Shown: positions 40,225 through 53,015, counted from the stretch's first letter. The stretch is DNA of 64,000 bases from an uncultured Acetatifactor sp. (GCA_934426825.1 CAKRYI010000011.1:5302-69301); one strand, 5' to 3'. Program-made: numbers and translations. Notes: generated from the letters alone by a model not told the origin.

Positions 40225-40926
40225 ATGAACGGATTAGTGGAAATCGTGGGACTGACAAAAGCATATAATGCGAACACGATTGCAGTAAACAATGTCACAC
40301 TGACACTTCCCAAGGGAAAGATTATCGGTCTTTTGGGGCCCAACGGAAGCGGCAAAACAACGTTGATTAAGATGATGAACGGACTTTTGAAGCCGACGGC
40401 GGGAAGCATAAAGATTGCCGGTTACGAGGTTGGAACGGAGAGCAAAGCCCACGTGGCATATCTGCCGGACAGAACCTATCTGGCAGGAGGACAGAGCATT
40501 AATGAAATCCTGAATTTCTTTCAGGCGTTCTATGCTGATTTTTCAAAAGAAAAGGCGATGGAAATGTTACAGAGCCTGAACATCAGTCCGGATGCCAAAA
40601 TGAAAACTTTGTCCAAAGGTACAAAGGAAAAGGTACAGCTTATTCTGGTGATGAGCCGTCAGGCTGACCTCTATGTGCTGGATGAGCCGATTGCCGGAGT
40701 GGATCCCGCAGCGAGGGATTATATTCTTAGAACCATTATTAACAACTATAATTCGAATGCCACGGTACTGATTTCCACGCATTTAATCAGCGATATTGAA
40801 CCGGTGCTGGACGAGGTGATTTTTATGAAATACGGACACATGGTGCTGTACACCTCCGTTGACAATATCAGGGAACAAAAGGGAAAATCTGTGGACGCAT
40901 ATTTCAGGGAGGTGTTTGCATGTTAG
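40225..40926 (+). CDS. ABC transporter ATP-binding protein
   Basis: Walker A GPNGSGKTT, ABC signature LSKGTKEKVQL, and Walker B LYVLDEP. Confidence 0.9.
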   Translation: MNGLVEIVGLTKAYNANTIAVNNVTLTLPKGKIIGLLGPNGSGKTTLIKMMNGLLKPTAGSIKIAGYEVGTESKAHVAYLPDRTYLAGGQSINEILNFFQAFYADFSKEKAMEMLQSLNISPDAKMKTLSKGTKEKVQLILVMSRQADLYVLDEPIAGVDPAARDYILRTIINNYNSNATVLISTHLISDIEPVLDEVIFMKYGHMVLYTSVDNIREQKGKSVDAYFREVFAC

Positions 40927-41786
40927 GAAAGTTGATAAAATACGAATGGAAGAGCGTGTACAAGATTGGCTGTGTTCTTCTTTTGACGATATTTGCAGTT
41001 ACGCTGTTGGGAAGCATTATGATGAGGATGCCTTTTGTGACGGATGTGTTCGCTGCTACAAACGGAACCGGCTACGCCAGTGACCAGCAGGCGTTTATCA
41101 CTCTTTTTGGCATGATAATAAGTTTTGTGTTGTATGTTCTTTTACTTGTAGGAACGATATACGGCATTACCATTTATTTAGGCGTTCATTTTTACAAGAC
41201 CATGTATACGGATGAAGGGTATCTGATTCACACCCTTCCTGTTACACCACATCAGATTCTGGTTAGTAAGATTCTGGTAGGCGGACTGTGGCAGATCATC
41301 ATTAACGTTGCGATGGTTCTCTCGGTGGCGGTACTGGCTACCGTGTTTGCAGGAACCGTTTTCCAGAGTACACATACGGACATGAGCATCTTTGAAGTGT
41401 GGGGGCAAATCGGGGAAGGATTTATGGAACTGGAGTATATGCTCGGTTCCGGAGCGTTCAGTCATTATATCATAGGAATGATACTGATGTTTTTGATAAC
41501 ACCGTTTACCGGTCTCATGACGATGTTCGGTGCCTTTACATTAGGGCAGACGTCCTCAAAGCACAAGGTCATGATGGGAATCCTTTGCTATATCGGTTTG
41601 TTGTTCGGAACCAATCTTCTGAAGGCAATGGTACAGATGCTTATTGCACTTGCTGTGCAGGATATAGACGGCAATACCATTTTGGTGGCACAGAATGACG
41701 CACTGTTAATTGTTTCTGTGATACTCGGTGCCGTGATGTACTTTGTATCCCACCTGATTATCAGCAAACATTTAAATCTTGATTAA
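40920..41786 (+). CDS. ABC-2 type transporter permease
   Basis: 288 aa with 6 hydrophobic helices. Overlaps the ATPase gene stop and lies in the same operon. Confidence 0.7.
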   Translation: MLGKLIKYEWKSVYKIGCVLLLTIFAVTLLGSIMMRMPFVTDVFAATNGTGYASDQQAFITLFGMIISFVLYVLLLVGTIYGITIYLGVHFYKTMYTDEGYLIHTLPVTPHQILVSKILVGGLWQIIINVAMVLSVAVLATVFAGTVFQSTHTDMSIFEVWGQIGEGFMELEYMLGSGAFSHYIIGMILMFLITPFTGLMTMFGAFTLGQTSSKHKVMMGILCYIGLLFGTNLLKAMVQMLIALAVQDIDGNTILVAQNDALLIVSVILGAVMYFVSHLIISKHLNLD

Positions 41787-41949
41787 AATACGAACACTTT
41801 TGAATGAATATTCAAAGATGGAGCGGACAACGTGGCAATACGGTCCGCTCTGTTTTGCATTCTTTGTTTTTCGTGAAAATAATTTGCCCTATGTGTGATA
41901 ATTTGGTATAATCGAATTATATATTGGACAAAAGCGGGTGAGTGTATTA

Positions 41950-44900
41950 ATGCAGGAGATTATTAATCGAATTTTAGAGGGAAACTTCGATTATGAGAAT
42001 GGTTCTCTTGATTTTTCATGCGCAAAAATCGAAATAAATATCCCCGCCGGAAGTTCTTACGAAGGAACCTTTCATGTGCGCTCCACGCCCGGACAGATTA
42101 CGGACGGCTATATCAGCACCACGGATTTGCGTATGGAGTGCCTCACACCGGAGTTTGTGGGAAGCGACGAGGAGATTGCGTTCTGTTTCCATGGCGAGGA
42201 CATGGAAGAGGGCGAAGTCGTAAAAGGTGCCTTTAACGTTATCAGCAATCACGGCGAGTATTATCTGCCGTTTGTGGTGTCTATCGAACATATCGTTTTA
42301 AATTCCTCCATTGGAACCATTAAGAATCTGTTTCATTTTGCGAATCTGGCGAAGAGTAACTGGCAGGAAGCTGTCAAACTGTTCTATTCGCCTGAGTTTG
42401 AGCGCCTTTTTACCGGGAGCGATTCCAAGGTATACGACAGTTACCGGGGATTGGCGGCACATCCGGGAAATGAGCAGAATGTGGAAGAATTTCTGATTCA
42501 GGTAAATAAAAAGCAGAAAGTGGAATTCCTTGCGGAAGAAAAGGAATTGACCATGGAGCTGGCAAACACCGGAAATGTATGCAGGGTGCTGGAAAATGAA
42601 GTTACCATTGTACGGAACGGCTGGGGCTATACAGCGCTGAATGTGGAGTGCGACGGCGATTTCGTTTTCACGGAAAAAACGCTGCTTACGGATGATGATT
42701 TTCTGGGAAACCGGTGCAGACTGCCGGTATTTGTGGACAGCAGTCTCTGCAGACGCGGGAAAAATTTCGGGCAGGTGGTGCTTTACAATTCCTATGTATA
42801 TCTGACGATACCGGTGATGGTAAAAGTCGGTGAGATAGGCAGAGCGGGGCATGCCGATTTGTCCAGACGGCGGATTACCGTGCAGCTTATGGAGTTTTAT
42901 CAGGCTTTCCGCACGAAAAAAATCAGTTCCGCTACATGGATGAAGGAAAGCACAAAACTGGTGGACAGACTGGTGGCAATGGATGAAAACAATGTGCCGG
43001 CAAGACTTTTTCAGGCACAGTTACTCATATCCGAGGAAAGGTACAACGAGGCGGAGTGGCTCTTGGAGCATGCCATGTCTCTGATGGAACAAAGGCAGAT
43101 TGAGGACGACACCTTGCAGGCGTACTACCTGTATCTCACCACGCTGATTCACCGGGATGAAAAATATGTGAAACAGATTACCGACGAGGTAAGGCAGATA
43201 TACCGGAAGCACCATACCAACTGGAGAGTGGCGTGGCTCTTGTTATATCTTGCGGAGGAGTACAATAAGTCCGCCGCCGTCACCTTATCTTTGCTGGAAA
43301 AGCAGTTTTATTACGGGTGCAGCAGTCCCATTTTGTACATAGAGGCGTTATACCTTTTGAACAACAATCCGGCGCTTTTGCGAAAACTGGACGACTTTGA
43401 GTTACAGGTGCTCGGATATGGCGCAAGGCAGCAGATTCTCGGAATGGAACTGGTGGAACAGTTATTGTATCTGACGGGAAAAGTACGGGAGTATTCGCCG
43501 GTGCTTTTAAAGACGCTGTTAAAACTGTATGAAAAGAAAAAGGATGTAAGGGTACTGCAGGAGATTTGTACCCTGTTGATAAAAGGCGGTAAGACGGAAC
43601 ATAAATACTTTGAGTGGTACGAGCGGGGAGTGGAAGCGCAGCTTCGTATTACGAACCTGTACGAATATTATATGATGGCGCTGGATTTGTCGGTGCCCTG
43701 CACCCTGCCGAAAATTCTGCTGATGTATTTTTCCTATCAGAATAACTTGGATTACGAACACAGCGCATACTTGTATTATTATGTGGTACGGCACCGGGAC
43801 GAGATGGCGGAGCTGTACGAAAATTACGGACTGCGCATAGAGCGTTTTGTCATTGACCAGATTCAGAAGCAGCATATCAACCGCAATCTGGCAGGTCTGT
43901 ACCAGACCTTTTTGACACCGGGCATGATTACGCAGGACACGGCGCGGGCGCTGACGAGGATTCTGTTTGCCCACCAGATATGGGTGGAGGATTCCAGACT
44001 GCACAAGGTGATTGTGTATCAGGCGGGCAATCTCGTACCGGAGGAGTACAGCCTGCAGGACAATACGGCATGGGTTGCCCTTTACGGGACGGACTATACG
44101 GTATTGTTTGAGGACGGCTGGGGCAACCGGTTTGCCAAAAGTGTGGATTATACGTTGGAAAAACTGATGATGCCGGGAAAATTTTTGCGCATGATAGTCA
44201 ACTATGACAGGGATTGTCCGGCGTTTGATTTGTATTTGTGCGAGTCGGAGCATTATGACGTCACGGCGGAAAATGTAGAGCGTGCCATCCGTGTGGCGGG
44301 ATTTGACAATATCGCCAACAATATCCGTCAGGAAATCTATCTGAGAATTTTGCAGTATTATTATGATGCGGACGATATGCGGGCGCTGGACGACTATCTT
44401 GAGCAGATTCCGTTTGAGGCGCTTACCATGTCCGAGCGCGGAACCGTGCTGCGATATATGGTGCTGCGCGGAAAATACGACACGGCGTATATGTGGCTGG
44501 AACGGTACGGTCCTTATTTTGCGGACACCAAAACGCTTGTAAGGCTGATTTCCGAAATCATGCAGCGCAATAATATGCTGGAGAACAGGGTACTTACGGC
44601 GGCTGCACTGTATGCTTTCCGAAAAGGAAAATACAACAGCACCGTGCTTTTGTATCTCACCATGTATTTTGAAGGACTGACAAAGGACATGCGGGACATC
44701 TGGAAGGCGGCAAGAGCCTTTGAGGTGGACTGTTACCGGCTGGCGGAGAAGATGATTGTGCAGATGCTTTACTCCGGCGCGTTTGTGGGAGAGAAAGCGG
44801 ATGTGTTCCGCTATTATGTGTCGCAGGGAGCAAAGCAGGACGTCGAGGAGGCATTTTTGATGCAGTGCGCTTACGACTGCTTTGTGCGGGAAAAAATAAC

Positions 44901-45519
44901 GGACAGCTATATTTTTCAGGAAATCCGTTATTCCTATCTGCGCGGGGAAGAGGTTTCCTTGGTATGTAAACTGGCGTACTTAAAATATTTTTCCGAAAAT
45001 CAGGCGGAAATAGCGCCGGAGGACAAGCCTCTTATCGGAGATTTTTTAGGGGAAATGTTAGGGAAAAACATTCACCTGAATTTCTTCCGGGAATTGAAGG
45101 ACTTTAGTTATCTGACAAGGGTGATGGGAGACAAGACCATTATCGAATACCGGACAAAGCCGGGCGGGAAGGCACGTATCCACTATGTGGTGATGAACGA
45201 GCGCGGCGAGGCGGCGGAATATCTGTCGGAATATATGGTGGATGTGTACGGCGGCGTGTGCTTTAAAGATTTTGTGCTGTTTTTCGGAGAGACCCTGCAG
45301 TATTACATTACGGAGGAAAACGACGGCAAGGAACAGCTTACGGAGAGCGGCAATATCCAGGAGAGCGACATTGTAAACGACAGCCACGGAAACCGCTACG
45401 AGCTGATTAACGATATGGTAATCAGCAAGACCCTGCAGGATTACGACACGCTGGACAAGCTGATGGAGGATTATTTCCGCAAAGAGAGCTGGAATAAAAA
45501 ACTGTTCCGCCTGCTGTAA
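41950..45519 (+). CDS. Large hypothetical protein (about 1189 aa): N-terminal beta-rich region plus long alpha-helical repeat (TPR/ARM-like) body. No recognisable catalytic motif.
   Basis: Long intact ORF with consistent codon usage. The ATG at 41950 is preceded by GGGTGAG. The GTG at 41938 is also possible. It is the first gene of a tight four-gene same-strand block (gaps 88, 13, 8 nt). Confidence 0.7.
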   Translation: MQEIINRILEGNFDYENGSLDFSCAKIEINIPAGSSYEGTFHVRSTPGQITDGYISTTDLRMECLTPEFVGSDEEIAFCFHGEDMEEGEVVKGAFNVISNHGEYYLPFVVSIEHIVLNSSIGTIKNLFHFANLAKSNWQEAVKLFYSPEFERLFTGSDSKVYDSYRGLAAHPGNEQNVEEFLIQVNKKQKVEFLAEEKELTMELANTGNVCRVLENEVTIVRNGWGYTALNVECDGDFVFTEKTLLTDDDFLGNRCRLPVFVDSSLCRRGKNFGQVVLYNSYVYLTIPVMVKVGEIGRAGHADLSRRRITVQLMEFYQAFRTKKISSATWMKESTKLVDRLVAMDENNVPARLFQAQLLISEERYNEAEWLLEHAMSLMEQRQIEDDTLQAYYLYLTTLIHRDEKYVKQITDEVRQIYRKHHTNWRVAWLLLYLAEEYNKSAAVTLSLLEKQFYYGCSSPILYIEALYLLNNNPALLRKLDDFELQVLGYGARQQILGMELVEQLLYLTGKVREYSPVLLKTLLKLYEKKKDVRVLQEICTLLIKGGKTEHKYFEWYERGVEAQLRITNLYEYYMMALDLSVPCTLPKILLMYFSYQNNLDYEHSAYLYYYVVRHRDEMAELYENYGLRIERFVIDQIQKQHINRNLAGLYQTFLTPGMITQDTARALTRILFAHQIWVEDSRLHKVIVYQAGNLVPEEYSLQDNTAWVALYGTDYTVLFEDGWGNRFAKSVDYTLEKLMMPGKFLRMIVNYDRDCPAFDLYLCESEHYDVTAENVERAIRVAGFDNIANNIRQEIYLRILQYYYDADDMRALDDYLEQIPFEALTMSERGTVLRYMVLRGKYDTAYMWLERYGPYFADTKTLVRLISEIMQRNNMLENRVLTAAALYAFRKGKYNSTVLLYLTMYFEGLTKDMRDIWKAARAFEVDCYRLAEKMIVQMLYSGAFVGEKADVFRYYVSQGAKQDVEEAFLMQCAYDCFVREKITDSYIFQEIRYSYLRGEEVSLVCKLAYLKYFSENQAEIAPEDKPLIGDFLGEMLGKNIHLNFFRELKDFSYLTRVMGDKTIIEYRTKPGGKARIHYVVMNERGEAAEYLSEYMVDVYGGVCFKDFVLFFGETLQYYITEENDGKEQLTESGNIQESDIVNDSHGNRYELINDMVISKTLQDYDTLDKLMEDYFRKESWNKKLFRLL

Positions 45520-45607
45520 GAACAGAAGTGAGGGCATTTGCAATAAGGGTGCCATAAAAACAGAAGAGACGTAAAAGACAGAAGAGCCGGGAAAGGAGGG
45601 GAGCGGC

Positions 45608-46891
45608 ATGCTGAAACTGGGAAACGGTGAAAAATTATATGTGGGATATGATTTGGGAGACGACTACTCGCAAATCAGTTTTTGTACCCGGACGGGAGAG
45701 GTGGAGACGCTCTCCTTGGTGGCGGGAACGGAAAATTTCAATATTCCCACCGTGCTCTGCAAACGAGAGGGCGTCAACCAGTGGTTTTACGGCAGGGAGG
45801 CGCTTCGGTATGCGGAGAACAATCAGGGAATTTTATTGAAAAATGTGCTTTCCATGGCGGTGGACGGGGAATCGGTTCAGGTGGAGGGAAAAACATTAGA
45901 CCCGGTGGCGCTTCTGACGCTGTTTGTCAAAAGAAGTCTCGGACTTTTGTCGCAGGTATCTTCCCCCGATAAAATCGACATGCTGATGTTTACCTGTGAA
46001 ACGCTGAACCACCGGATGCTGGAGGTGCTGTCGCAGGTGGCGGCGGGACTGAAGCTGAAACCGGAGCAGGTATGTTTTCAGAGCCATACGGAGAGTTTCT
46101 ATAATTATATGATTCATCAGCCGGAGGAATTGTGGAATTACCCGGTGCTTTTGTGTGACTATCGGGAGAACCATATCACGGTGTACCGCATGGAGTGCAA
46201 TAAGCGGACAACCCCTGTTGTTGTATATATCGGCAACCGGGAGTATGCTTTCCCGGCGTATCAGCCCATGCCGGAGGCGGAGACGCTGCGCCGTGAAAAG
46301 ATGGAGCGGCTGGACAGTGAATTTCTGCACCTTATGACGGATGTGTGTCAGAGCGGAATGTTGTCTGCGGTGTATTTGATTGGCGAGGATTACTCGGAGG
46401 AATGGATGAAGGAATCCCTGCGGTTTTTGTGCAGGGGACGGAGAGTTTTTCAGGGAAACAATCTGTACAGCAAGGGAGCCTGCTACGGCATACAGGAGCG
46501 GCAGTCTGCCAGTGAGGCGGGAAAGAGCCATGTATTTTTGGGTAATGACAAGCTGAAAGCCAATGTGGGAATGAAGATTTTGCGCAGGGGCGAGGAATCG
46601 TATTTTGCGCTTTTGGATGCGGGAGTGAACTGGTTTGAGGCGGAGCAGACCATGGAGTGCTATCTGCAGGACGGCAATTCCGTTGAGTTTGTGATAACTC
46701 CCCTGATTGGCAAAAAAGGAAGAGTCGTGCAGATGACGCTGGACGATTTACAGGGCAGTATCAACAGGCTGAGGGTACGGCTTTATATGAAGGAAGAGAG
46801 CAAGATGGCGGTGGAGATAACGGATTTGGGATTCGGCGAAATCCGTCCGGCAAGCTATCATTTGTGGAGAGAAGAAATCGGATTATACTAG
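45608..46891 (+). CDS. Hsp70/actin-fold (ASKHA) protein with degenerate nucleotide-binding motifs, a likely pseudo-ATPase
   Basis: N-terminal phosphate-1-like YVGYDLGDDYSQISF (Hsp70 IGIDLGTTNSCVAV). VLLCDYRENHITVYRM stands in place of phosphate-2 DLGGGTFDVSIL, with the GGG lost. SAVYLIGEDY stands in place of the adenosine motif. Strong SD GGAAAGGAGGGGAG. Confidence 0.55.
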   Translation: MLKLGNGEKLYVGYDLGDDYSQISFCTRTGEVETLSLVAGTENFNIPTVLCKREGVNQWFYGREALRYAENNQGILLKNVLSMAVDGESVQVEGKTLDPVALLTLFVKRSLGLLSQVSSPDKIDMLMFTCETLNHRMLEVLSQVAAGLKLKPEQVCFQSHTESFYNYMIHQPEELWNYPVLLCDYRENHITVYRMECNKRTTPVVVYIGNREYAFPAYQPMPEAETLRREKMERLDSEFLHLMTDVCQSGMLSAVYLIGEDYSEEWMKESLRFLCRGRRVFQGNNLYSKGACYGIQERQSASEAGKSHVFLGNDKLKANVGMKILRRGEESYFALLDAGVNWFEAEQTMECYLQDGNSVEFVITPLIGKKGRVVQMTLDDLQGSINRLRVRLYMKEESKMAVEITDLGFGEIRPASYHLWREEIGLY

Positions 46892-46904
46892 AGGATGCGG
46901 TGAG

Positions 46905-47762
46905 ATGATGCGTATAAGTGTCTGTGTCGGAGAATATGCAAAAATTCCATATTGTATTGCCGGACTGGAAATCCCTGTGTACTGCATGGAGGAGCTGTGT
47001 TACTGTCTGCGGGAAAATGCGTTTTTGTTGGATACAACGCTGATGGAAGATTCTCTGGTGAACTGGATTGGCGAGGAGTGCGGTTTGACGGAGCTTGCAC
47101 AGGAATTATATCCCATGGTCCGCAAACAGGGCTCGCTGAGCGCTTTCGTGTCACTGATTCTGGAATATGTGGGACTGTACAGCCATGACATCATCCGCAA
47201 TGTGGAGCAGGTATTGAAGGAAGGTTCCGGACTCAGCGGAATGGAAAAGCGGAAGAACCAGATAGATTATCTTGTGCGGAAGGGAAAATATCCGCTGGCG
47301 GTGCACCGGTACGACATTCTCCTTTCAGGATGGCAGGAGGATGAGGGGCAGGACGCAAAACAGCCCGGATACAAGGTGAAGGCGGGAATTTTGCATAACA
47401 AGGGCGTGTCGTTGACCGGAATGATGGAATACATGGCGGCGGCGGACTGCTTTTTGGAGGCGTACGAGACAGACCGTGACCCAGAGCATTACAGGGCATA
47501 TCTGGCGGCAAAGCGCACGGGGATGAGTGAGGAGGAGTATCTGTCCTTTGTGGCGGAACAGCCGGACAGCTACGAGGAATCGCTGGAACTGGAAAAGGAA
47601 ATTGAGAGAATGGAAGGGGAATTCAGGGATACGGAAGCGGGAAGAAAGCTGGCGGATTTGAGAGAATGGAGAGCCGGCGGCGACAAGCAGAAGTATTATG
47701 AGGAAGTGGAACGGATTACATGCCTGATGAAAGAAAATTATCGAAACAGCGGGGATGAGTAG
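46905..47762 (+). CDS. Hypothetical protein (285 aa), third gene of the block
   Basis: Intact ORF 13 nt after the previous stop with an SD present. Cys-rich N-terminus (CVGEYAKIPYCIAGLEIPVYCMEELCYC) and acidic C-terminus. No family recognised. Confidence 0.55.
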   Translation: MMRISVCVGEYAKIPYCIAGLEIPVYCMEELCYCLRENAFLLDTTLMEDSLVNWIGEECGLTELAQELYPMVRKQGSLSAFVSLILEYVGLYSHDIIRNVEQVLKEGSGLSGMEKRKNQIDYLVRKGKYPLAVHRYDILLSGWQEDEGQDAKQPGYKVKAGILHNKGVSLTGMMEYMAAADCFLEAYETDRDPEHYRAYLAAKRTGMSEEEYLSFVAEQPDSYEESLELEKEIERMEGEFRDTEAGRKLADLREWRAGGDKQKYYEEVERITCLMKENYRNSGDE

Positions 47763-47770
47763 GAGACCAT

Positions 47771-48940
47771 ATGGGATTTTTAGGCAGATTATTTGGAAAA
47801 AAGAAACGGGCGCAGGCTGAGGAAGAAAACTGGGAACAGATTGTATATGCCAGAGACGAAGTGGATTTCAAGGATGAGGAGCAGAGAAGCCGGTATATCA
47901 CCAACTGTTTGGAGCAGATGGCGGAAGCCTTGAAGGAAATGAATCTTCTCATGGGCGAGTATTCTCTGGTAACGTCCTATCTGACGGATATGGAAGAGAT
48001 TGAGGCGCTTGGAGAGAGCGAGCGGGAGGAGATTGACATGCTTGCCCGCCGTCTGGACGCGCTGGAAGGCGAGCGGGAGAGATACCGCGGCAGAAGCGTG
48101 CGCATGAAGGACGCAGAATATGACCATATGCGCAAGCAGGAGAACGAGATAGAGGAAGGAATCAAGAGAATCCGCAAGGAGGAGCAGTACGGGGAACTGG
48201 TCAAGCGGGATTTGGGACGGCTGGACAGGGAGCGCCACGCCTATGAATACCGCAGGGAAGAACTGGGAACCATTCAGACCAATCTGCGGGGAATGGCGCT
48301 TATTTTTCTGGTTGCACTGATTATCTGCCTGATTATGCTTGCTATTTTGCAGTTCGCGTTTGGAATGAACACTTACGTGGGATATTTCCTCTCTGTGATA
48401 GCGGCGGCAATCGCCATTACGGTTTTGTGTGTCAAATATATGGATGCGGACAGGGAGTACGGAAAGGTTCAGAACGCTATCCGCAAGCTGATTCAGTTAC
48501 AGAACAAGGTCAAAATCCGCTATGTCAATAATGTGCATCTGCTGGATTATCTCTATATGAAATACAATACGGACAGCGGCGACAGACTGGAAAAGAGATG
48601 GCAGATTTACCAGCAGGAAAAGGAAGAGAGAAAGCAGTATGCCGAGGCGGAGGCAAAGACGGACTATTACAGCAGACAGCTGGTGGAGAAGCTGTCCAAT
48701 TACCGGGTGGCGGACCCCGGACGCTGGGTGCATCAGGCAAAGGCACTGTTGGATAAGAGGGAAATGGTGGAGATTCGCCACGAACTGATTCAGCGCAGGC
48801 AGGCTTTGAGAAAACAGATGGATTACAATAAAGATGTGGCGGCAACCGCAAAAAATGAAATTATGGATGTGGCTAACCAGTATCCCGCCTATGCAAAAGA
48901 AATTCTGGACATGGTAGACCGCTATGACAGTGGGATATAG
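47771..48940 (+). CDS. Membrane protein with two central TM helices flanked by long coiled-coil segments (389 aa)
   Basis: SD AGGAGA before the ATG. Charged coiled-coil N-terminus (…EALGESEREEIDMLARRLDALEGERERYRG…), then TM1 ALIFLVALIICLIMLAILQFAF and TM2 YFLSVIAAAIAITVLCV, then a C-terminal coiled coil. Confidence 0.6.
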   Translation: MGFLGRLFGKKKRAQAEEENWEQIVYARDEVDFKDEEQRSRYITNCLEQMAEALKEMNLLMGEYSLVTSYLTDMEEIEALGESEREEIDMLARRLDALEGERERYRGRSVRMKDAEYDHMRKQENEIEEGIKRIRKEEQYGELVKRDLGRLDRERHAYEYRREELGTIQTNLRGMALIFLVALIICLIMLAILQFAFGMNTYVGYFLSVIAAAIAITVLCVKYMDADREYGKVQNAIRKLIQLQNKVKIRYVNNVHLLDYLYMKYNTDSGDRLEKRWQIYQQEKEERKQYAEAEAKTDYYSRQLVEKLSNYRVADPGRWVHQAKALLDKREMVEIRHELIQRRQALRKQMDYNKDVAATAKNEIMDVANQYPAYAKEILDMVDRYDSGI

Positions 48941-49074: not shown

Positions 49075-49956
49075 ATGAGTATGCAGGAATTGAAACCAAT
49101 CAAAGAAGGCAAGGTACGCGAAATTTATGACAATGGAGACAGCCTGATTATGGTGGCAACTGACAGAATCAGTTGTTTCGACGTGATTCTGAAAAACATT
49201 GTGACCAAAAAGGGAACGGTTCTGACCCAGATGTCCAAGTTTTGGTTTGACTTGACAAGCGACATCATTCCCAACCACATGATTTCCGTAGATGTAAAGG
49301 ATATGCCTGAATTTTTCAGACAGCCGAAATTCGACGGCAACAGCATGATGTGCAGAAAGCTGAATATGCTTCCCATCGAGTGCATTGTCCGTGGATACAT
49401 AACCGGAAGCGGCTGGGCAAGCTATCAGGAAAACGGAACGGTATGCGGAATCAGACTTCCCGAAGGATTGAAAGAATCCGATAAGCTGCCGGAGCCTATT
49501 TATACCCCTTCCACAAAGGCAGAGATTGGCGACCATGACGAAAATATTTCCTATGAGCAGAGTGTGGAGTATTTGGAAAAGCGCTTCCCCGGAAAGGGTG
49601 AGGAGTATGCGGCAAAGCTGCGCGATTACACCATTGCTATCTATAAAAAATGTGCGGACTATGCTTTGACGAAGGGTATCATTATTGCAGATACCAAGTT
49701 TGAGTTTGGCTTGGACGAGGACGGAAACATTGTTCTCGGTGACGAGGTGCTGACACCCGACAGTTCCCGTTTCTGGCCGGTAGAGGGCTATGAACCCGGA
49801 CACGGACAGCCTTCCTTTGACAAGCAGTTCGCCCGTGACTGGCTGAAAGCAAATCCCGGAAACAACTGGGAGCTGCCGGAGGAAATTGTACAGAAGACAA
49901 TCGACAAATATCTTCAGGCATATGAACTTCTGACCGGCAAAAAGATTTCTCTGTAA
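49075..49956 (+). CDS. purC: Phosphoribosylaminoimidazole-succinocarboxamide synthase
   Basis: ELKPIKEGKVREIYDNGDSLIMVATDRISCFDVIL… is the SAICAR synthetase N-terminus. About 290 aa (long form). SD GAGGAG. Confidence 0.9.
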   Translation: MSMQELKPIKEGKVREIYDNGDSLIMVATDRISCFDVILKNIVTKKGTVLTQMSKFWFDLTSDIIPNHMISVDVKDMPEFFRQPKFDGNSMMCRKLNMLPIECIVRGYITGSGWASYQENGTVCGIRLPEGLKESDKLPEPIYTPSTKAEIGDHDENISYEQSVEYLEKRFPGKGEEYAAKLRDYTIAIYKKCADYALTKGIIIADTKFEFGLDEDGNIVLGDEVLTPDSSRFWPVEGYEPGHGQPSFDKQFARDWLKANPGNNWELPEEIVQKTIDKYLQAYELLTGKKISL

Positions 49957-50011
49957 ATAAGAAATGTAACTTCATTAAGATGGACAAAGGCGTCCGAACC
50001 CGAAGGGATTC

Positions 50012-51544
50012 GTGCGCCCTTTGCCCGGATATGAATATGGGTGGTACGATGTATCGGGAGAGGACTTTCGGATTTGGGAAAGGTATGGTAAATCAGTGAC
50101 CGAAAATATCTATATTCAAACAGAAAACAACGATAAACTTAAGGAAGAATGCGGCGTCTTCGGTGTGTACGATTTTGACGGAAAAGATGTGGCATCCACC
50201 ATATACTACGGTCTTCTGGCATTACAGCACAGAGGACAGGAAAGCTGCGGTATCGCAGTCAGCGATACAAGCGGCCCGAAAGGGAAAGTGCTGAGCAGCA
50301 AGGATATGGGACTGGTGAACGAGGCATTCACCCCGGAGCATCTGGAGAAATTAAAAGGCAACATCGGCGTTGGGCATGTGCGGTATTCCACGGCAGGCGG
50401 TTCTACCAGAGAAAATGCCCAGCCCTTAGTCATTAATTATGTAAAAGGGGCGCTGGGACTGGCACACAACGGAAACTTGATTAATACACCCGAACTACGG
50501 CAGGAGCTTGCCTATACGGGCGCTATTTTCCAGACAACCATTGACTCGGAGGTTATTGCCTATTATATCGCCAGAGAACGATTGAACAGCAAATCCGTTG
50601 AGGAGGCTGTCGGACGTACCATGGGCAAAATCAAGGGTGCGTACTCTCTGGTAATTATGTCTCCGAGAAAGTTAATCGGAGCGAGAGACCCCTACGGCTT
50701 CAAACCTCTTTGTATCGGAAAGCGGGACAACACGTATCTCTTGGCAAGCGAAAGCTGCGCACTGGATACGGTGGGAGCTACTTTTGTCAGGGATGTGCTG
50801 CCGGGCGAAATCGTAACCATTTCGCCGGACAAGGGAATCCAGTCGGATATGAGCCATGCGCTGAAACCCGAACAGGTGGCGCGCTGTGTATTCGAGTATA
50901 TCTATTTTGCAAGACCCGACAGTATCATTGACGGGGTCAGTGTCTATCATTCCCGCATTATGGCGGGGAAATACCTTGCCATGGATTCACCGGTGGACGC
51001 CGATTTGGTGGTGGGAGTACCGGAGTCCGGAAACTGTGCCGCACTGGGATATTCCTTACAGTCCGGCATTCCCTACGGAACGGCTTTTGTAAAAAATGCC
51101 TATGTAGGACGAACCTTTATCAAACCCAAGCAAAAAGCGCGGGAGAGCAGTGTGCAGGTCAAATTAAATCCCATTCGTGAGGCGGTGGAGGGAAAACGTA
51201 TCATTATGATAGATGATTCCATTGTCCGGGGAACGACCTCGGACCGCATTGTGCGGATGCTTCGGGAGGCAGGAGCGAAGGAAGTGCATATGAGGGTCAG
51301 CTCGCCGCCCTTTTTATGGCCCTGCTATTTTGGTACGGATGTACCGGCGAGAGAGCAGTTGATTGCGTATAACCGGACCATTCAGGAAATCGGTGATATT
51401 ATCGGAACGGATTCGCTGGATTATCTGAGAGTGGAAAGACTTGAGGAGATTGTAAACGGTCTGGGTATCTGCAAGGGGTGCTTTACGGGAAAATATCCCA
51501 TGGAGCCTCCGAAAGAAGATATTCGCGGTGAATTTGAAAAATAA
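50012..51544 (+). CDS. purF: Amidophosphoribosyltransferase with N-terminal propeptide. The true start is probably the GTG at 50096.
   Basis: …KLKEECGVFGVYDF… matches the B. subtilis PurF propeptide junction (…GLNEECGVFGIW…). The Ntn Cys follows. PRTase motif IIMIDDSIVRGTT. The ORF-track ATG at 50012 lacks an SD. The GTG at 50096 has GGAAAGG upstream. Confidence 0.85.
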   Translation: MRPLPGYEYGWYDVSGEDFRIWERYGKSVTENIYIQTENNDKLKEECGVFGVYDFDGKDVASTIYYGLLALQHRGQESCGIAVSDTSGPKGKVLSSKDMGLVNEAFTPEHLEKLKGNIGVGHVRYSTAGGSTRENAQPLVINYVKGALGLAHNGNLINTPELRQELAYTGAIFQTTIDSEVIAYYIARERLNSKSVEEAVGRTMGKIKGAYSLVIMSPRKLIGARDPYGFKPLCIGKRDNTYLLASESCALDTVGATFVRDVLPGEIVTISPDKGIQSDMSHALKPEQVARCVFEYIYFARPDSIIDGVSVYHSRIMAGKYLAMDSPVDADLVVGVPESGNCAALGYSLQSGIPYGTAFVKNAYVGRTFIKPKQKARESSVQVKLNPIREAVEGKRIIMIDDSIVRGTTSDRIVRMLREAGAKEVHMRVSSPPFLWPCYFGTDVPAREQLIAYNRTIQEIGDIIGTDSLDYLRVERLEEIVNGLGICKGCFTGKYPMEPPKEDIRGEFEK

Positions 51545-51563
51545 AAAATGAGGAGAACGGAAA

Positions 51564-53015
51564 ATGAGTACAGACAGATATGTAAGCCCTTTATCAGAGA
51601 GATATGCCAGCAAGGAAATGCAGTATATTTTCTCCCCGGACATGAAATTCCGTACATGGAGAAAATTGTGGATTGCATTGGCTGAGACGGAGAAGGAACT
51701 GGGATTGTCCCAGAACGGAAAGCCTGTCATTACGGATGAGCAGATTGAAGAACTGAAAGCGCATGCGGAGGACATTAATTATGAGGTGGCAAAGGCTCGC
51801 GAGAAAGAGGTTCGTCATGATGTCATGAGCCATGTGTATGCTTACGGACAGCAGTGCCCCAAGGCAGCGGGAATCATTCACTTAGGTGCAACCTCCTGTT
51901 ATGTGGGAGACAATACGGACATTATCGTTATGACGGAAGCACTGAGACTGGTGAAAAAGAAGCTGATTAACGTAATGAAGGAACTGGCGGATTTCGCTGA
52001 CAAGTATAAGGCACAGCCCACACTGGCATTTACTCATTTTCAGCCTGCACAGCCTACCACGGTAGGAAAAAGAGCGACACTGTGGTTACAGGAGTTCTCT
52101 TTGGATTTGGAAGATTTAAATCATGTTCTTGACAATATGAAGCTGCTCGGTTCCAAGGGAACCACCGGCACACAGGCGTCTTTTTTAGAGCTCTTTAACG
52201 GAGATCAGGAGACCATTGATAAGATTGACCCCATGATTGCCGCAAAGATGGGCTTTAAGGAGTGCTATCCCGTGTCCGGACAGACCTATTCCAGAAAGGT
52301 TGATACAAGAGTAGCAAATGTTCTGGCGGGAATTGCGGCTTCCGCACACAAAATGAGCAACGACATTCGTCTGCTGCAGCATTTGAAGGAAGTGGAGGAG
52401 CCGTTTGAAAAGAGCCAGATTGGTTCTTCTGCCATGGCTTACAAGAGAAACCCCATGAGAAGCGAGAGAATTGCTTCCCTGTCCAGATATGTGATGGTGG
52501 ATGCACTGAACCCTGCCATTACTTCCGCAACCCAGTGGTTTGAGAGAACTCTGGATGATTCCGCAAATAAGCGTCTGTCCATTCCTGAAGGATTTCTTGC
52601 CATTGACGGTATTCTGGATTTGTGCCTGAACGTGGTGGACGGACTGGTAGTATATCCCAAGGTAATTGAGAAACATATGATGAGTGAGCTGCCTTTTATG
52701 GCAACGGAAAATATTATGATGGATGCCGTGAAGATGGGCGGCAACCGTCAGGAGCTTCACGAGCGCATCCGCGAGCTTTCCATGGAAGCGGGACGCAATG
52801 TGAAGGTGGAAGGAAAGGACAACAACCTTTTGGAGCTGATTGCGGCAGACCCTGCTTTCAATATGTCTCTGGAAGATTTGAAGAAGAGCATGGAGCCTTC
52901 TAAATATATCGGACGTTCCAAGGAACAGGTGGACGCATTCCTTGCCAAAGTGATTCGCCCCATTTTGGAGGAGAACAAAGATTTACTGGGTGTAAAAGCA
53001 GAGATTAACGTTTAG
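51564..53015 (+). CDS. purB: Adenylosuccinate lyase
   Basis: MSTDRYVSPLSERYASKEMQYIFSPDMKFRTWRKLWIALAE… and the fumarate-lyase signature region (…GSSAMAYKRNPMRSE…). Confidence 0.92.
   Translation: MSTDRYVSPLSERYASKEMQYIFSPDMKFRTWRKLWIALAETEKELGLSQNGKPVITDEQIEELKAHAEDINYEVAKAREKEVRHDVMSHVYAYGQQCPKAAGIIHLGATSCYVGDNTDIIVMTEALRLVKKKLINVMKELADFADKYKAQPTLAFTHFQPAQPTTVGKRATLWLQEFSLDLEDLNHVLDNMKLLGSKGTTGTQASFLELFNGDQETIDKIDPMIAAKMGFKECYPVSGQTYSRKVDTRVANVLAGIAASAHKMSNDIRLLQHLKEVEEPFEKSQIGSSAMAYKRNPMRSERIASLSRYVMVDALNPAITSATQWFERTLDDSANKRLSIPEGFLAIDGILDLCLNVVDGLVVYPKVIEKHMMSELPFMATENIMMDAVKMGGNRQELHERIRELSMEAGRNVKVEGKDNNLLELIAADPAFNMSLEDLKKSMEPSKYIGRSKEQVDAFLAKVIRPILEENKDLLGVKAEINV

Follow-up and report, generated by a model that had tools for sequence, protein, structure and literature searches.

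A conserved Lachnospiraceae gene cassette that may encode a membrane-tethered scaffold containing a degenerate Hsp70-like protein

In the window (the whole stretch of 64,000 nucleotides that was analysed), four consecutive genes, g1 to g4, encode a large protein of β-sandwich and TPR-like domains, a lidless and catalytically degenerate Hsp70-like DUF5716 protein, a TPR protein and a protein with two hydrophobic segments (Table 1). As all parts of these products are of protein-binding types, the four probably assemble into a membrane-attached complex that is as yet undescribed. We judge the chances to be even that the four genes are one operon, whose products make up a scaffold or holdase complex of chaperone-derived modules that is tethered to the membrane and has no enzymatic activity. 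Searches of Pfam, NCBIfam, the PDB and fold databases found no enzyme fold or family in g1-g4, consistent with an earlier note on this DNA, in which no catalytic motif had been recognised. The Pfam entries DUF5716 and DUF5717 carry no function, g3 and g4 are without any family, no mention of either DUF in this context was found in the literature searched, and matches to characterised families, which would speak against novelty, were sought and none was found.

Table 1. Positions of the genes, their encoded domains and the flanking signals in the window
Feature	Position	Strand	Remarks
Terminator-like hairpin 3' of the ABC permease gene	41820..41855	+	GGAGCGGAC...GTCCGCTC then TGTTTTG, by direct reading
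σ70/σA-type promoter-like site 5' of g1	41884..41912	+	extended -10 (TTGCCC-17-TGgTATAAT)
g1	41950-45519	+	1189 aa counted from ATG
g1 β-sandwich 1, residues 20-124	42007..42321	+	MSP/PapD/ASH-like
g1 helical linker, residues 127-186	42328..42507	+	conserved, low model confidence at 161-190
g1 β-sandwich 2, residues 192-293	42523..42828	+	model secondary structure; tandem Ig/ASH-like Foldseek matches
g1 TPR-like α-solenoid 1, residues 298-671	42841..43962	+	
g1 small β domain 3, residues 674-738	43969..44163	+	model secondary structure
g1 α-solenoid 2, residues 743-1059	44176..45126	+	model secondary structure; long TPR/HAT scaffold matches
g1 C-terminal β-sandwich 4, residues 1062-1137	45133..45360	+	model
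g2	45608-46891	+	427 aa
g2 Hsp70-type nucleotide-binding-domain fold, residues 1-300	45608..46507	+	truncated subdomain IIB, degenerate ATPase motifs
g2 linker and Hsp70 SBD-β-like sandwich, residues 308-427	46529..46888	+	
g3	46905-47762	+	285 aa
g3 TPR region, residues 110-205	47232..47519	+	Tah1 alignment
g4	47771-48940	+	389 aa
g4 transmembrane hairpin, residues ~175-224	48293..48442	+	two Kyte-Doolittle segments
g4 invariant juxtamembrane motif, residues 243-254	48497..48532	+	LQNKVKIRYVNN
g4 second conserved motif, residues 326-353	48746..48829	+	LLDKREMVEIRHELIxRRQALRKQMDYN

Organization and Conservation of the Cassette

The layout described in the earlier note, four same-strand genes with gaps of 8-88 nt between a GntR-ABC operon and the pur cluster, is borne out at all coordinates: GntR (39841) and an ABC ATPase and permease (40225-41786) lie upstream, purC, purF and purB (49075-53015) downstream, and the gaps g1/g2, g2/g3 and g3/g4 are 88, 13 and 8 nt long (related loci have medians of 23, 16 and 16 nt). 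An alternative GTG start at 41938 would give g1 four extra residues; the public gene call P0121 has 1189 aa and is 100% identical to g1. The strong ribosome-binding sites mentioned in the note correspond to Shine-Dalgarno-like sequences 5' of g2 (AAGGAGG) and of g3 and g4 (AGGAGA). The terminator-like hairpin, which was not among the hits of a consensus scan, marks the upstream boundary of the cassette; terminator-like matches in the scanned region are fewer than in shuffled sequences (3 versus a mean of 6.2). The promoter-like site is the best in the region, with a 10/12 match and the TG, and of 71 related loci, 45 have an exact TGNTA[ACT]AAT no more than 250 nt 5' of g1, usually at -35 to -80, suggesting that the site serves as a promoter.

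The linkage of g1-g4 is far beyond chance and is conserved in related genomes, which was the neighbourhood check that the note had proposed. All 80 species-level loci carry g1-g2-g3 in the same order and on the same strand, and the order recurs in 11 more distant loci with different flanks. There it is held at 24-37% identity with unrelated flanks, namely argS/cobW...uvrD in L089, rarA upstream in L090, L092, L093 and L095, and htpG upstream in L081. g4 is an accessory member: among the 77 first-set loci that reach past g3, 72 have it, as do 8 of the 11 distant loci (including L089, hhalign E 9.7e-45), and it is missing from five first-set lineages and from 3 of the 11. Overall, the cassette is found in at least 588 species, with every informative name being that of Lachnospiraceae (gut bacteria), and it has a core-chromosome setting with thyA, dhfr, htpG, pur genes and relA as neighbours. 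Pairwise distances of g1-g4 correlate among themselves (r 0.91-0.94) and with those of PurB (r 0.75-0.81), the partial r given PurB being 0.77-0.85. This co-variation is supportive only, and the mirror-tree signal may be inflated because PurB changes too slowly to stand in well for the phylogeny. The four proteins evolve at 6-8 times the rate of PurB, which would also be expected of an accessory or conflict-related system.

The Degenerate Hsp70-Like Protein g2

g2 is a full-length member of Pfam DUF5716, its residues 126-425 matching DUF5716_C (PF18980) with an E-value of 3e-100 (335.6 bits; cut-off 34.7). The N-terminal part has an actin-like nucleotide-binding-domain (NBD) fold whose nearest relative is Hsp70, with Hsp70 NBDs placed ~6 Z units above any actin-like protein in the fold comparison, and the C-terminal part shows a β-sandwich substrate-binding domain (SBD-β) of the Hsp70 type. 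Residues 308-427 include some of the most conserved positions of the DUF5716 family. The order NBD-linker-SBD-β is shared with the bacterial Hsp70s DnaK, HscA and HscC, and the stretch after the NBD, HVFLGNDKLKANVGMK, looks by eye like the DnaK linker with its first SBD strand, VLLLDVTPLSLGIET. In contrast to canonical bacterial Hsp70s of ~560-640 aa, g2 has 427 aa (~400-460 aa across its family). The model contains no α-helical lid, since the chain stops at residue 427 right after the last β-strand (419-425), and subdomain IIB is down to one helix. At the sequence level, no match to Pfam HSP70 (PF00012) was obtained at E<=1, and neither phmmer nor hmmsearch retrieved a PDB Hsp70. In a comparison with DnaK, hhalign gave an E-value of 0.11 for a g2 profile of 33 sequences and 3.7e-4 (probability 36%) for one of 126 sequences, with the deep profile aligned to DnaK 3-209 in the correct motif register.

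The phosphate-1-like string reported in the earlier note is located at residues 11-25 (YVGYDLGDDYSQISF). Across 126 family representatives the TT of phosphate 1 is lost or replaced, and the phosphate-2 GGG loop is gone, with variable charged residues instead, which confirms the glycine loss noted there. Of the conserved DnaK ATPase residues compared (D8, K70, E171 and D194), the column equivalent to K70 holds D in 45, E in 30, T in 11 and K in 9 of the 126, and is thus acidic in 75, while the D184 column holds D in 65 and E in 30. By contrast, G13 is kept in 125 of the 126 representatives, D15 is D in 106 and E in 16, and E162 is kept in 108. The adenosine-motif glycines, thought to be lost as well, are a mixed case: G259 is invariant (126/126), which makes the claim right only in part, and the Gly at 261, found in 71/126, is absent from the window protein. 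Since G13, D15, E162 and G259 are kept, g2 may still bind nucleotide and even hydrolyze it slowly.

Among the known systems closest to g2 is the atypical Hsp70 Ssz1 of the yeast ribosome-associated complex, RAC (PDB 4gni, 5mb9). In Ssz1 all four NBD subdomains are retained and ATP is bound; g2, by comparison, is without the catalytic lysine, the phosphate-2 loop and the greater part of IIB. The two share 14% identity and no sequence search joins them. The partner of Ssz1 is the J-protein Zuo1, whereas that of g2, fused or adjacent, is a TPR protein without a J-domain. Unlike a canonical Hsp70 system, the genes of the cassette encode no J-domain, HPD motif, DnaJ, GrpE or exchange factor. Given its losses, g2 is therefore expected to be a fixed binding subunit, as is Ssz1 in RAC, and not an ATP-cycling chaperone.

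The TPR Partner g3

No Pfam or NCBIfam match above cut-off was obtained for g3, which consists of a conserved N-terminal domain (1-105), two TPR motifs (~110-205) and an acidic helical tail. A profile of 32 orthologues matches consensus TPR proteins (E 5.5e-7) and Tah1 (E 1.3e-4), the latter with residues 110-195 on Tah1 2-74 and covering both repeats, such that MSQFEKQKEQGNSLFKQGLYREAVHCYDQLI is aligned with LsklEKrKsqvDylvkkkkyaaAvreYdaLl of Tah1. K117, D121, H164 and N165 are invariant in the 32 orthologues. K117 and N165 align to K8 and N43 of Tah1 and the invariant D121 to N12, which are carboxylate-clamp positions in Tah1. The pairing of a TPR protein with an Hsp70-fold protein is reminiscent of the TPR co-chaperones Tah1, Hop/Sti1, SGTA and Tom70, but g3 differs from these by its additional conserved N-terminal domain of 105 residues, which has no known relative. 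An EEVD ligand of the Tah1/Hop type has no counterpart as a free tail on HtpG, and the conserved C-terminal EEIxLY of g2 is structural, forming a β-strand in the model and lying internally in g2-g3 fusions.

Such fusions, with g3 joined to the C-terminus of g2, are seen in 6 of the 80 loci and, among 150 listed representatives of 50%-identity clusters, in 6, and are the sole pointer to binding between cassette proteins. The fused ORFs (685-775 aa, with linkers of only ~15-30 residues) fall into at least six separate 50%-identity clusters; one fusion cluster comprises 1109 sequences, and one contains the isolate Butyrivibrio sp. NC3005 (WP_026504008.1).

The Scaffold g1 and the Membrane Protein g4

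g1 is a full-length member of Pfam DUF5717 (PF18984 and PF18983), with both profiles above the gathering score: DUF5717_N covers residues 1-875 (E 2e-300, 999 bits; cut-off 25) and DUF5717 residues 880-1186 (E 1.5e-99, 333 bits; cut-off 25). Together with DUF5716_C in g2 and the exclusively Lachnospiraceae names among the relatives, this agrees with the suspicion in the note that such proteins carry DUF labels in this family. In the AF2 model (pLDDT 81.8, pTM 0.49), four MSP/PapD/ASH-like β-sandwiches alternate with two TPR-like solenoids, the domain arrangement being uncertain because of the pTM of 0.49; no enzyme fold is seen in it. Thus, the giant α-solenoid of the earlier note stands as regards the two solenoids, but g1 is not purely helical because the four β-sandwich domains interrupt them. 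g1 has no transmembrane segment and would be a cytoplasmic acidic scaffold. The highest mean column identity of any 20-residue block (0.83) is reached at 1101-1120 in β-sandwich 4 (GGVCFKDFVLFFGETLQYYI). In the helical linker, L127, F130, L133, A134, E140, A141, F145, Y146, F150, Y165, F181 and L182, as well as the nearby K188, are at least 97% conserved among 80 homologues, and residues 161-190 have a mean pLDDT of 46-55; the linker may be a candidate partner-binding segment. The solenoids can be likened to TPR/HAT scaffolds (APC5, Ctr9, Naa15, IFT-A) and the sandwiches to MSP/ASH/PapD-like proteins (VAP MSP domain, Hydin, CEP192, pilus chaperones), but there is no global match to these (TM-score 0.06-0.18, identity 5-18%). 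No PDB entry matches the whole chain, nor was the order sandwich-sandwich-solenoid-sandwich-solenoid-sandwich found in any.

g4 has no Pfam, NCBIfam or PDB match. Its description as a two-transmembrane coiled-coil protein fits the two hydrophobic segments found at ~175-196 and 205-224. The joining loop of ~8 residues is uncharged (AFGMNTYVGYF has no charged residue) and 7 K/R lie in the 26 residues after the second segment, and the sequence predicts an N-in/C-in hairpin between cytoplasmic coiled-coil-like regions. An N-terminal motif, MGFWxxLFxKKK, is conserved, and among 33 orthologues Q244, V247, K248, I249, R250, Y251, V252, N253 and N254 of the juxtamembrane motif and D328, E331, E334, R336, H337, L339, R342, R343, Q344, R347, Y352 and N353 of the second motif are invariant. 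Since g4 is absent in some lineages, the core function would have to manage there without membrane tethering, or with a different anchor in place of g4.

Proposed Function and Alternative Explanations

We propose that the operon is transcribed from its own σA-type promoter and that its products assemble at the cytoplasmic face of the membrane. g1 would be the large platform, with modules that bind peptides and proteins, g2 would be an Hsp70 descendant that kept the NBD fold and β SBD but lost the lid, the catalytic lysine, the phosphate-2 loop and the bulk of IIB, and g3 would be its obligate TPR partner. Where present, g4 would anchor or organize the assembly via its two-transmembrane hairpin and juxtamembrane motifs. 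The complex would most likely hold, dock or assemble specific client proteins without the use of ATP. The parts fit a membrane-tethered scaffold, and the membrane-associated assembly or cytoskeletal machine of the earlier note is a functional guess. More tentatively, and with considerable doubt, the cassette could be a lineage-specific, undescribed Lachnospiraceae machine in which an Hsp70 was turned into a non-hydrolyzing structural subunit like Ssz1, independently of eukaryotes, and hard-wired to a TPR adaptor on a giant MSP-like/TPR scaffold at the membrane. TPR co-chaperones of Hsp70 are regarded as eukaryotic. If true, this would be the first bacterial case of such Hsp70-plus-TPR-co-chaperone logic, and at the membrane the machine might be dedicated to docking, coating or assembly.

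It is unlikely that the cassette encodes an active, ATP-driven specialized Hsp70 system, in which g2 would cycle nucleotide with g3 and g1 as TPR co-chaperones. Clients might then be passed on to the nearby Hsp90 (HtpG), a task that Hop/Sti1 has in eukaryotes. Such a system would agree with the conserved D15, E162 and G259 of g2, with the best alignment of the g3 TPRs being to Tah1, an Hsp90-associated TPR protein, and with the position of htpG. In the window, this gene is found 6.2 kb upstream in the same orientation; it immediately precedes g1 in L012, L078 and Butyrivibrio NC3005, and 18 of ~55 loci have it no further than 6.4 kb away. However, htpG is missing from the flanks of L084, L088-L090 and L092-L095, so that regional synteny (thyA-dhfr-prsA-htpG ... 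pur) accounts for its closeness, and the HtpG of the window ends in ...DIMMMLAK, without an EEVD-type tail. Moreover, the clamp Asn of Tah1 (N12) aligns to an invariant Asp of g3, the catalytic-lysine position of g2 is mostly acidic, phosphate 1 and phosphate 2 are altered, of IIB, the subdomain where adenine is held and exchange factors dock, only one helix is left, and the cassette lacks a J-domain, HPD motif and exchange factor. The membrane protein g4, with MGFWxxLFxKKK and coiled coils reminiscent of PilN- or FtsN-type partners, could instead be the receptor of an actin-like g2 (ParM/MreB/FtsA/PilM-type) that forms filaments or is recruited to the membrane, making the cassette a cytoskeletal, division or cell-shape module. 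We consider this very unlikely, given the Z-score lead of Hsp70 NBDs, a C-terminal Hsp70-type SBD-β that is not found in actin-like proteins, the degeneration of the nucleotide motifs that drive polymer dynamics, and the dispensability of g4 in several lineages.

A multi-gene cassette of fast-evolving proteins with a variably present g4 could also be an anti-phage or conflict system, with TPR and β-sandwich proteins as sensors and the two-transmembrane protein as a membrane-disrupting effector. The probability of this appears minimal: PADLOC-DB 2.0 gave no significant match for any of g1-g4, the sole one being a very weak match of the g4 transmembrane region to a SLATT-containing DRT model (E 0.66), and none of the proteins has a nuclease, NTPase or protease domain, or another enzyme domain of an effector or sensor. 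The position in the core chromosome is conserved, the distances track those of PurB, consistent with vertical descent, and the distribution over one family is not patchy across phyla. No plasmid match was found, and four 'Bacteriophage sp.' matches are unverified fecal contigs, the two inspected of which carry bacterial housekeeping genes (rarA, valS, gltX, feoB, uvrD). Returning to the proposed scaffold or holdase complex, its process could be specified as cell-envelope or spore-related assembly, e.g. delivering or holding cortex or cell-wall enzymes, which we regard as improbable. The neighbours that suggest it switch side and orientation and are missing in L081, L086, L089, L090 and L095, and synteny explains them equally well; the promoter looks σA-type and not sporulation-sigma-type; and Butyrivibrio, described as a non-sporulating genus, has the cassette without the SleC-like gene nearby. 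On the other hand, a well-conserved, SleC-like PG_binding_1 protein with a weak SpoIID match is encoded within ~5 kb of the cassette in 58 of 80 loci. Its gene immediately precedes the cassette in L084/85 and lies downstream of it in L092/L093, two loci whose cassettes are only 24-30% identical. Amidase_3/polysaccharide deacetylase, CotJ and spoVA genes are found near some distant cassettes, and a YtrA-like GntR-ABC pair adjoins the cassette in 43-51 of 80 loci, with the permease gene of L088 ending 5 nt 5' of g1.

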